Positions 13,872 to 15,114 of a stretch of DNA of 59,812 bases are shown here, piece after piece. Each line of letters begins with the position of its first letter. Positions within the stretch are counted from its first letter, which is position 1. The translations under genes were made by a program, and so were the position numbers. Source of the DNA: Omnitrophica WOR_2 bacterium GWF2_43_52 (lineage in GTDB: Bacteria > Omnitrophota > Gorgyraeia > Gygaellales > UBA12090); NCBI GenBank assembly GCA_001805445.1, contig MHGF01000036.1:96010-155821 (forward strand). The letters are read 5' to 3'. The notes under the pieces are model-generated. The model searched no databases. It was not told the origin of the DNA and saw only the letters and a program-made list of their open reading frames with translations.

Positions 13872-15005
13872 ATGGCCTGCGTTACTATTCCCGGCTTGCG
13901 TTATCGGGATTTCAGCCGGAGTTTTCATTACAGAGAAGAGTGCCGTAATGTCCCTTTAGAAGGGGCGATAGAAGTTACTAACGCCTGTAACCTAAGCTGT
14001 AGGCATTGCTATATCCGGGATAATGATACGCGCGGTGAATTAAGCTATACGCAGTGGCGCAGGATAATTGATGAAATAGTTGAAGAAGGCTGCCTCTGGC
14101 TCACCTTTACCGGAGGTGAGCCTTTACTGCGCAAGGATTTCCTGGATATCTATCTTTATGCCAAGAGAAAAGGGCTTTTGCTTGTGCTCTTTACCAACGC
14201 CACCCTCATTGACCGAAAGATAGCGGAGTTCCTGGCTGAGTACCGGCCGTTCTTTTTAGAGATAAGCCTTTATGGGATGTCTGAAGATGTGTATAAATCT
14301 GTAAGCGGTTCGCCAGAGGCGTATTACCGGATGAAAGAGGCGCTTGCGCTTTTAAGAGAGAGGAATGTCCTTTTTAAACTTAAAAGTGTCTTAACCAAGG
14401 ATACCATAGCCCAGATTCCCCAGATGAAGGCATTTGCTAAAGGCTTAGGGCTTGAATTCAGATTTGACTTGTTGATTAATCCCAGGATTGACGGGGGAAA
14501 AGAGCCATGTGAGGTGAGGGTCAGCCCTGAAGAGGGGGTGGCCTTAGAGATGTCTGATTCCGAGACAGCCTATTATATGGAAAAAGATTACTTTGGCCTT
14601 ACTCAGGAGGTTAATCCGGGCCTATTATTTCCCTGTAGCGCGGGGAAGAATTCCTTTAACATTGATTCCAAGGGGAGATTGTCTATCTGTAATATGGTTA
14701 GGCATATAAACTGTGATTTAACGATGATGTCGTTTAAAGAAGGCTGGCAGAGTTTTCCGGAGATTCTCTCTCGGAAGGCTGCGTTAAACTCCAGATGCGC
14801 CAGCTGTAATCTTGATTCTTTTTGTAACCGCTGCCCGGGCTGGGCAATGATGGAATACCGGGATGAAGGGGCCTTGGTGGAGTATGCCTGCGAGGTAACC
14901 CGCGCGCGGGAGCAGGTAATTTTAGAAAGGAGGAGGGGAAATGGAAACAAATCAAAAGAAAAGCTATATCAAGCCGAGCTTAAAGGAAGTAACCTTGATT
15001 CCTGA
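13872..15005 (+). CDS. Radical SAM/SPASM-domain peptide-maturase-like enzyme
   Basis: 377 aa. CNLSCRHCY (CX3CX2C). C-terminal SPASM pattern CSAGKNSFNIDSKGRLSIC (CX12GX4C), then CASCNLDSFCNRC. Confidence 0.9.
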   Translation: MACVTIPGLRYRDFSRSFHYREECRNVPLEGAIEVTNACNLSCRHCYIRDNDTRGELSYTQWRRIIDEIVEEGCLWLTFTGGEPLLRKDFLDIYLYAKRKGLLLVLFTNATLIDRKIAEFLAEYRPFFLEISLYGMSEDVYKSVSGSPEAYYRMKEALALLRERNVLFKLKSVLTKDTIAQIPQMKAFAKGLGLEFRFDLLINPRIDGGKEPCEVRVSPEEGVALEMSDSETAYYMEKDYFGLTQEVNPGLLFPCSAGKNSFNIDSKGRLSICNMVRHINCDLTMMSFKEGWQSFPEILSRKAALNSRCASCNLDSFCNRCPGWAMMEYRDEGALVEYACEVTRAREQVILERRRGNGNKSKEKLYQAELKGSNLDS

Positions 15006-15114
15006 GGAGGCGGTATTGACTAATTGTAAGACTGCTGGAGGTAGAGGCACTGTTAACCGTTCTTGTGATAAATTTAACCGTTGCAGCGGCAGGACAAGCG
15101 CTAATGGCTCTTAA
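14941..15114 (+). CDS. Candidate RiPP precursor peptide (57 aa), not in the supplied ORF track
   Basis: Translation: METNQKKSYIKPSLKEVTLIPEEAVLTNCKTAGGRGTVNRSCDKFNRCSGRTSANGS. AGGAGG at 14928-14933 lies 7 nt before the ATG. Overlaps the last 65 nt of the SPASM gene in another frame. Stop TAA at 15112-15114, 6 nt before the next gene. Confidence 0.6.
   Translation: METNQKKSYIKPSLKEVTLIPEEAVLTNCKTAGGRGTVNRSCDKFNRCSGRTSANGS

Follow-up and report, generated by a model that had tools for sequence, protein, structure and literature searches.

The stretch of DNA considered here, which we call the window, comprises 59,812 nucleotides of contig MHGF01000036.1 (positions 96,010 to 155,821, forward strand) from the Omnitrophica WOR_2 bacterium GWF2_43_52. 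At its center of interest is a small open reading frame (ORF) of 57 codons on the forward strand, which runs from the ATG at 14941 to the TAA at 15112–15114. The ORF is found between the gene of a radical S-adenosylmethionine (SAM)/SPASM-type maturase (13872–15005) and that of a kinase-like protein, which begins at 15121, 6 nt past the stop codon of the peptide. An earlier note, made from the sequence alone, had placed the ORF there and had read it as the hidden candidate precursor of a peptide made on the ribosome and modified after translation (RiPP). The coordinates and the translation it quoted agree exactly with the sequence, the product being METNQKKSYIKPSLKEVTLIPEEAVLTNCKTAGGRGTVNRSCDKFNRCSGRTSANGS, and the reading itself is supported by orthologues, by a family profile and by linkage to a gene cassette, as described below.

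The peptide is best viewed in two parts. Residues 1–28 (14941–15024, forward strand) form the leader, in which a 58-sequence alignment reveals the family motif KxYxKPxhxxVxLxPEEAVL. Residues 29–57 and the stop codon (15025–15114, forward strand) form the core, of the pattern CK...C...C...GS, with three Cys (C29, C42 and C48), four Arg (R35, R40, R47 and R51) and a C-terminal Ser. The gene appears once: a hidden Markov model (HMM) of the family matches the window only at 14926–15111, and the small ORF at 16102–16266 has no match to the peptide family.

The start codon is preceded by a Shine-Dalgarno-like stretch, AGGAGGAGG, at 14928–14936 of the forward strand. It contains AGGAGG twice, at 14928–14933 and at 14931–14936, the spacing to the ATG being 7 and 4 nt; the first of these copies is the one that the earlier note had counted among the best Shine-Dalgarno matches in the window. 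The motif is indeed there, and only two sites in the window combine AGGAGG with an ATG 4–9 nt further on, but this is not significant, since shuffled sequences yield about three by chance. A match at chance level cannot by itself count as evidence for a gene, even though the homologue at locus L002 is also preceded by a GGAGG-type site, and the case for the peptide rests on conservation instead.

A homologue search that covered 5.8 billion proteins returned two homologues, again of 57 aa and with 72% identity, and both of them are syntenic. We number the related loci from L001 onward; the two homologues come from L001 (NCBI GCA_041642995.1) and L002 (a Logan assembly). The gene order at L001 is GNAT, B12-dependent radical SAM enzyme, arginase-TPR, PqqD, radical SAM enzyme, a PDDEXK_3 gene, the peptide, a ScmC-like protein and NTP_transf_5, and the order at L002 is arginase-TPR, PqqD, radical SAM enzyme, peptide and the next gene. 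The DNA identity among the three peptide genes is only about 65%, and the differences concentrate at the third codon position: the three pairwise comparisons give 18/11/29, 14/15/31 and 16/11/34 differences at codon positions 1/2/3. In the peptide frame the proportion of nonsynonymous differences (pN) is about 0.23 and that of synonymous differences (pS) is 0.67–0.81, with the synonymous sites saturated. Only in this frame is the ratio of nonsynonymous to synonymous substitution rates (dN/dS) low, at about 0.17 or with a saturated dS, whereas it exceeds 1 in the two other frames. Those two frames also hold stop codons, and no frame but that of the peptide stays open throughout the three sequences. 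At the C-terminal end, ten residues, CxGRTSANGS, are shared without change by the three close orthologues even though the codons differ and the synonymous sites are saturated. The homologous small ORF that the earlier note had called for at orthologous loci is thus present, and selection acts on the peptide frame and not on the maturase frame alone. The ORF at 14941–15114 is shown by these data to be a real, conserved gene under purifying selection, linked to the neighboring enzymes.

The peptide ORF and the 377-aa radical SAM ORF at 13872–15005 share 65 nt in different frames, just as the earlier note had described together with the tail of the maturase that it quoted. In an alignment of eight orthologous maturases, the conserved domain ends near ...ACEVTRAREQVILER, and the tail beyond ...QVILER differs in both length and sequence at every locus. 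The distance from the maturase stop codon to the peptide start codon at eight loci is −65, +650, −44, −35, +31, +14, −4 and +62 nt. At L001 a whole gene lies between maturase and peptide, and the N-terminus of the peptide is equally conserved there. The maturase tail is partly dual-coded in the physical sense that the earlier note had in mind, but without a sign of selection; functional dual coding of 14941–15005 is rejected on account of the unconserved tail and of the absent or different overlap in the orthologues. From these comparisons, the 65-nt overlap is an incidental run-on of the maturase frame until it meets a stop codon. The overlap has a practical side. The exact window peptide is recorded on only three contigs, the longest of 808 bp, and the records of its kinase-like neighbor come from 15 contigs, the longest of 189,839 bp. 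On most assemblies of the window organism the peptide gene seems to escape automatic gene calling, probably because it overlaps the maturase.

The family to which the peptide belongs proved to be large. When the three sequences were turned into a profile and 1.84 billion representatives of 50% identity clusters were searched with it in HMMER (E ≤ 1e-3), it matched 497 representative clusters from several phyla, nearly all of them 45–80 aa long. The family leader reads KK-x-Y-x-K-P-x-h-x-x-V-x-L-x-P-E-E-A-V-L-x-x-C-K and no other part is conserved as well in the 497 clusters. It is followed by a variable core of the form C-x(9-15)-C-x(4-8)-C-x(3-9)-G-S, hypervariable between the Cys. P12, C29 and C42 never vary among the 58 aligned sequences, and Y9, L19, E23, A24, L26, K30 and C48 are at least 90% conserved, which bears out the division into a leader-like half and a Cys-containing core that the earlier note had drawn. 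The C-terminal Ser, which it had also pointed out, is a hallmark of the family: among 151 representatives the last residue is Ser in 130 and Thr in 13 (143/151, 95%), and 90 end in "GS". Exactly three Cys from the CK motif onward are found in 127 of 138 family members; the few exceptions to the three-Cys and Ser/Thr rule appear truncated or frameshifted. About half of the family have no Arg in the core.

Set against this record, the idea that the ORF is a chance or untranslated frame, conserved only on account of the overlapping maturase gene or an RNA structure, can hardly be right: its shortness, its overlap, its statistically ordinary Shine-Dalgarno motif and the three short contigs against 15 of up to 190 kb for its neighbor would suit such a frame, but the homologue at L001 is just as conserved 650 nt away from the maturase with a gene in between, third-position differences predominate with a low dN/dS in the peptide frame only, the tail in the maturase frame is unconserved, and the 497 related clusters are spread over phyla.

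The family has no name to go by. No model in Pfam or NCBIfam matches the window peptide, a Pfam/NCBIfam scan of 58 family members at E ≤ 1 gave scattered chance matches only, and the public names of the members are "hypothetical protein" or absent, with an empty precomputed Pfam assignment. A named precursor family is thus ruled out, as no Pfam/NCBIfam model or cluster name fits. A literature search found no paper describing the cassette, the motif or the peptide family. Neither this group of precursors with its rule of a terminal Ser/Thr nor the set of enzymes found together with it appears to have been described, while the biosynthetic logic is familiar.

Linkage of the peptide to the same set of enzymes holds well beyond the close orthologues. 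At the eleven other distinct loci that have it, the peptide lies in or beside a cassette that includes PqqD, radical SAM/SPASM and ScmC/HprK/PEPCK-like proteins wherever the contig covers them, and an S24 peptidase and NTP_transf_5 are usually present too. When loci were reached through the kinase-like protein, a family peptide was nearby in four of five, namely L003 (Omnitrophica), L004 (Brevefilum), L005 (a deltaproteobacterium) and L006 (a Planctomycetia metagenome-assembled genome); it is directly upstream of the kinase-like gene in L003–L005 and separated from it by one radical SAM gene in L006. At the loci reached through the peptide (L008–L014), the ScmC-like gene lies downstream, directly so except in L008/L009, and the radical SAM and PqqD genes lie just upstream of the peptide wherever the contig extends that far; at L010 the radical SAM gene is present and the contig ends before any PqqD gene. 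L017 was reached through the arginase; the peptide there has a radical SAM gene and a kinase-like gene beside it, and the locus encodes the arginase-TPR, three radical SAM enzymes in all (two listed before the peptide, one after the kinase-like gene), a methyltransferase, an S24-GNAT protein and NTP_transf_5.

Beside a radical SAM gene, PqqD occurs either as a gene of its own or as a domain fused to the peptide in L001–L006, L012, L014 and L017. In the window, L001–L004, L012, L014 and L017, a short precursor adjoins the radical SAM gene and a separate PqqD. In L005 and L006 the peptide shares its reading frame with a PqqD domain, and radical SAM genes stand alongside. The fusion in L006 (6809–7342) is a single 177-aa ORF of PqqD domain and precursor that ends in Ser, and none of the codons ATG, GTG and TTG occurs between its PqqD domain and its leader; such a fusion in nature speaks for an interaction of PqqD with the leader. 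In L005 (8880–9458) PqqD and precursor share one frame, but an internal TTG leaves a separate start possible. Radical SAM genes number four in the L006 cassette, which also contains a ScmC-like gene, genes for a GNAT and a sugar transferase, and an ABC exporter.

Two further observations concern the surroundings of these loci. Mobile or toxin-antitoxin-type small genes have repeatedly been inserted in or beside the cassette near the precursor gene (L001 5119–5529; L008 1629–2118; L012 5674–8160; L014 3115–3513 and 9421–9681), among them PDDEXK_3, ParE, DUF433/DUF5615, Uma2 and 23S_rRNA_IVP. Three loci that are unrelated to each other encode, just downstream of the cassette, giant proteins of the gingipain-like Peptidase_C25 type that also carry fn3 or Laminin_G domains (L004 10883–14689, L011 6508–11178 and L014 4654–8955).

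Turning to the enzymes of the window, the maturase (13872–15005, forward strand) matches Pfam Radical_SAM with E 7e-22, and its NCBIfam matches (MftC, StsB, ScmE, GeoRSP and PqqE) are all below threshold. It has a SPASM-like pattern of seven Cys, C-x13-G-x4-C ... C-x2-C-x5-C-x2-C ... C, which is conserved in eight orthologues; Pfam SPASM itself is unscored at E ≤ 0.01. The closest solved structures are SkfB, 5v1q and PqqE. Directly upstream of the maturase is a PqqD-family protein (13592–13867, forward strand; Pfam PqqD E 1.6e-13), the presumed leader-binding RiPP recognition element (RRE), and a second PqqD-family protein (9439–9756, forward strand; Pfam PqqD E 1e-14) marks the start of the cassette.

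The gene after the peptide (15121–16077, forward strand) encodes a ScmC/HprK-related P-loop kinase-like protein, which matches NCBIfam HprK_rel_B with E 3e-6 (below the cut-off) and has the precomputed Pfam assignment PF27840 ScmC. Neither its Walker A motif GxSGAGKST nor its SDDR motif varies among 45 homologues. Some homologues also match Hpr_kinase_C. An alignment profile of the protein reaches the HprK/P structures 2qmh and 1jb1 with E 0.004, and a direct sequence search of the PDB gave P-loop matches only. The AlphaFold2 model has a pLDDT of 89.3, and its top Foldseek matches are phosphoenolpyruvate (PEP) carboxykinases (E 5e-8); the fold superfamily of PEP carboxykinase also includes the catalytic domain of HprK/P. 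The protein is a member of the ScmC/HprK-related-B branch and possesses an additional N-terminal beta domain, in which it differs from the kinases of the lasso systems compared below; as a whole, its model is most like PEP carboxykinase.

Within this kinase-like gene is a perfect 48-nt palindrome at 15259–15306, made of two 24-nt arms with no spacer (AAAAAGGGGACAGGCAGCTTTTTC|GAAAAAGCTGCCTGTCCCCTTTTT). It occupies codons 47–62, in a variable loop, about 145 nt past the peptide stop codon, and is unique in the window. Its RNA fold has an energy of −42 kcal/mol and is followed by U5, so that it resembles an intrinsic terminator on either strand. Transcription past the precursor gene could be attenuated by the palindrome. 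It is no conserved attenuator, however, since six related loci lack it, which makes it specific to the window lineage.

The remaining members of the cassette are mostly candidates for tailoring. A protein of nucleotidyltransferase fold, NTP_transf_5, is encoded at 16236–17444 on the forward strand (Pfam PF14907 E 9e-45, with a GDIDIL motif) and occurs also in L001, L003 (where it is fused to an S24 domain), L008, L012 and L017. At 12129–13595 (forward strand) is a peptide arginase domain of the pfam12640 or FlmR-OhkR type joined to TPR (NCBIfam pept_arginase E 1.7e-11; Pfam UPF0489), the true start of which is likely the ATG at 12153 (MDNVFVMENHNEAL) and not the listed TTG at 12129. Its motifs are ENHNEAL, DSHFD and LDIDVDYF, the sole PDB match of its N-terminal domain is OspR (8BRP, E 4e-4), and the fusion to a C-terminal TPR array recurs in L001, L002, L015 and L017. 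A B12-binding radical SAM protein resembling RiPP C-methyltransferases (10521–12017, forward strand; NCBIfam TIGR03975 E 8e-27, below the cut-off; Pfam Radical_SAM and B12-binding) is conserved in L001. A fusion of an S24/S26-type, signal-peptidase-like peptidase to a GNAT (9725–10564, forward strand; Pfam Peptidase_S24 and Acetyltransf_1) is a candidate leader peptidase and acylase; it matches NCBIfam sigpep_I_arch with E 5e-12 and has a GRSMLP motif. S24 genes accompany the cassette in L003, L010, L012, L014 and L017, sometimes fused to GNAT or NTP_transf_5. On the reverse strand, an ABC-2 permease (17441–18247) and an ABC ATPase (18240–19034) make up a candidate exporter (17441–19034; Pfam ABC2_membrane and ABC_tran), and L003 and L008 have such a pair as well.

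Taken as a pathway, these genes make it very probable that the peptide is the precursor of a RiPP-type cassette spanning about 9439–19034, with leader binding, cross-linking and tailoring along the following lines, each chemical step being what we infer from the encoded proteins. The leader half, KSYIKPSLKEVTLIPEEAVL, would be bound by one or both PqqD-family proteins, which would present the peptide to the radical SAM/SPASM enzyme. Together, the conservation of the leader, the variability of the core and the placing of PqqD next to a radical SAM/SPASM gene follow the standard logic of an RRE-dependent RiPP. The enzyme would then use C29, C42 and C48 for intramolecular cross-links, most likely thioethers; the three conserved Cys point to three such links made by the maturase. 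The lineage of the window would add steps of its own: conversion of R35, R40, R47 and R51 of the core to ornithine by the arginase-TPR, C-methylation of the peptide by the B12-radical SAM enzyme, and acylation of an amine by the GNAT half of the S24-GNAT protein. All four loci with an arginase (the window, L001, L002 and L017) have at least four Arg in the core, which fits a conversion of Arg to Orn as lineage-specific tailoring. At the other end of the peptide, the ScmC/HprK-like P-loop protein may phosphorylate the C-terminal Ser57, and the NTP_transf_5 protein may extend the phosphate with a sugar or a nucleotide. Finally, the S24 peptidase would cut off the leader and the ABC-2 transporter would export the product.

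It is worth pointing out that several observations weigh against this proposal. The radical SAM enzyme is far below the cut-off of every named maturase family in NCBIfam, its only full-length alignment among the top matches is to the mycofactocin maturase, which is no thioether maker, and no conserved acceptor residue is evident for the Cys cross-links. By sequence, the link from the kinase-like protein to HprK/P is marginal, at the E of 0.004 given above, and HprK/P is not among the 50 Foldseek matches listed for it. NTP_transf_5 was not seen in the available sequence of L004, L010/L011 and L014, and the cores of L003 and L010 are rich in Arg with no arginase in the sequence available there.

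The genomic setting would also allow a different role for the product. In the window the cassette is embedded in polysaccharide-export genes (7439–9429 and 19254–23638), and export genes also lie at L001 8296–13449, L003 4716–8195 and L004 15254–17110, making four loci of unrelated lineages. Among them are an AAA_22 protein similar to the "XrtA/PEP-CTERM system-associated ATPase" (247 bits, below the cut-off of 324.5), an HD-type protein, Poly_export/SLBB, a tyrosine kinase of the Wzz-GNVR-ParA type and a Wzy_C ligase. A literature search for PEP-CTERM/exosortase with PqqD and HPr kinase found no paper on such an association. It is conceivable, if rather unlikely, that the peptide is a component of exopolysaccharide or cell-surface biogenesis and not antibiotic-like, acting as a primer, anchor or regulator of the Wza/Wzz/Wzy-type export system next to it. 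The nucleotidyltransferase would then extend the C-terminal phospho-Ser of the cross-linked peptide with sugars. If true, this too would supply the missing substrate of the ScmC-type cassettes that exist so far only in databases.

A second alternative, which we consider improbable, is that the peptide is the source of a small cofactor or signal in the manner of PqqA or MftA, with the radical SAM enzyme acting at the C-terminal Gly-Ser and the rest being discarded. The cassette does share the logic of PqqD, SPASM radical SAM enzyme and peptidase with the pathways of pyrroloquinoline quinone (PQQ) and mycofactocin, the latter of which also has a sugar-adding step. In the core of the peptide, conservation is highest at the C-terminal GS, like GVY in MftA, and the mycofactocin maturase model alone among the top NCBIfam matches spans the radical SAM enzyme fully (residues 29–319). 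The score of that model, however, is 94.6 bits against a cut-off of 265 for MftC, and PqqE is likewise at 69.2 against 381. Three Cys of kept spacing with free variation between them, where a precursor of the PQQ or mycofactocin type would have a strictly conserved core, fit a macrocyclic product and not a trimmed cofactor. The cassette has an ABC exporter of its own, and no redox partner enzymes of the PQQ or mycofactocin kind were seen.

The third alternative is a lasso-peptide precursor of the paeninodin or pseudomycoidin type, with the PqqD-like protein in the role of B1. Homologues of HPr kinase phosphorylate the C-terminal Ser of lasso precursors, and in the case of pseudomycoidin a nucleotidyltransferase glycosylates that phosphate (PMC8498205). 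The resemblance to this tailoring module is close, as the C-terminal Ser, an HprK-superfamily P-loop protein, a nucleotidyltransferase fold and a PqqD-like leader binder are all shared, and the genes for lasso-type phosphorylation (a C-terminal Ser with an HprK-family kinase-like protein and a nucleotidyltransferase) appear to be present in the window. The lasso systems nevertheless have a lasso cyclase and a B2 protease where the window cassette has a radical SAM enzyme. Neither the window genes scanned (5368–23638) nor the related loci have a Pfam domain of a lasso cyclase (a homologue of Asn synthetase) or of the B2 transglutaminase-like protease. What adjoins the peptide instead is in every case a radical SAM/SPASM enzyme, and the leader is without lasso-type features while the core keeps its three Cys. 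Because both the cyclase and the protease are missing from the genes scanned, we exclude a lasso peptide, the likelihood of which we regard as negligible.

The RiPP precursor proposed above has its nearest relatives among the sacti- and ranthipeptides (SkfB, CteB and PapB). In these, too, a short precursor has a radical SAM enzyme of the SPASM type and a member of the PqqD family as its neighbors, and a conserved leader goes with a variable core in which Cys are conserved; SkfB and 5v1q are the nearest solved structures to the maturase. Unlike in those systems, the leader motif and the Ser/Thr end of the window peptide fit no precursor model of Pfam or NCBIfam, the kinase-like ScmC protein always accompanies cassettes of the window type, and the models of named maturases score far below their cut-offs.

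The same types of protein, namely a PqqD homologue, a PqqE-like radical SAM/SPASM enzyme and a ScmC/HprK-related protein, make up the SynChlorMet (SCM; ScmC/D/E/F) and the GeoRSP/HprK-related kinase B families, and L006 resembles the layout with several radical SAM genes. The scores of the window proteins stay below the cut-offs of both, at 39.2 against 100 for ScmD, 74.8 against 400 for ScmE and 51.1 against 400 for ScmF in SynChlorMet (TIGR04248-04251), and 23.9 against 100 for TIGR04302, 79.9 against 400 for TIGR04303 and 26.6 against 200 for TIGR04355 in GeoRSP. ScmC (TIGR04249) gave no match at E ≤ 0.01 in the NCBIfam scan of the window proteins. The cassette is related to the SynChlorMet and GeoRSP families, which exist in databases only, and yet outside their cut-offs. 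To our knowledge, no precursor has been assigned to the SCM cassette. A literature search on SynChlorMet, GeoRSP and HprK-related cassettes found no paper, and one that combined radical SAM, SPASM, HPr kinase and RiPP found nothing relevant.

The last comparison is to the peptide arginases OspR (landornamide), FlmR and OhkR, the pathways of which have been described (PMC12703449, PMC10028609). The window shares with them three motifs of pfam12640, corresponding to the reported EEH(N/H)EAF, DXHXD and LDIDLDYFSC (PMC12703449), a PDB match to OspR only and an Arg-rich core with four Arg. The GNAT in the same cluster is also found in the Orn-acylating selidamide pathways (cited in PMC12703449). 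The window arginase differs in its fusion to a C-terminal TPR, which is not mentioned in the peptide-arginase literature that we compared. As far as the names of the motifs go, the precursor seems to fit none of the six types NHLP, N11P, SCIFF, SCCRRSCN, DD(I/V)LF and MGXRRSSE (PMC12703449), none of the motif strings being present in it.

For the family as a whole, the finding means that a widespread cassette, so far a matter of database protein families only (PqqD, radical SAM/SPASM and ScmC/HprK-like), gains a substrate peptide. The peptide family comprises at least 497 clusters at 50% identity, and its gene is often missed by gene callers. The family rule predicts a radical-SAM-cross-linked peptide with a C-terminal phosphoester, a feature described so far only for lasso peptides. 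In the Omnitrophica window, the version with arginase-TPR, B12-radical SAM enzyme and GNAT would represent a new type of precursor for peptide arginases, and its product is a candidate ornithine-containing and possibly acylated peptide.

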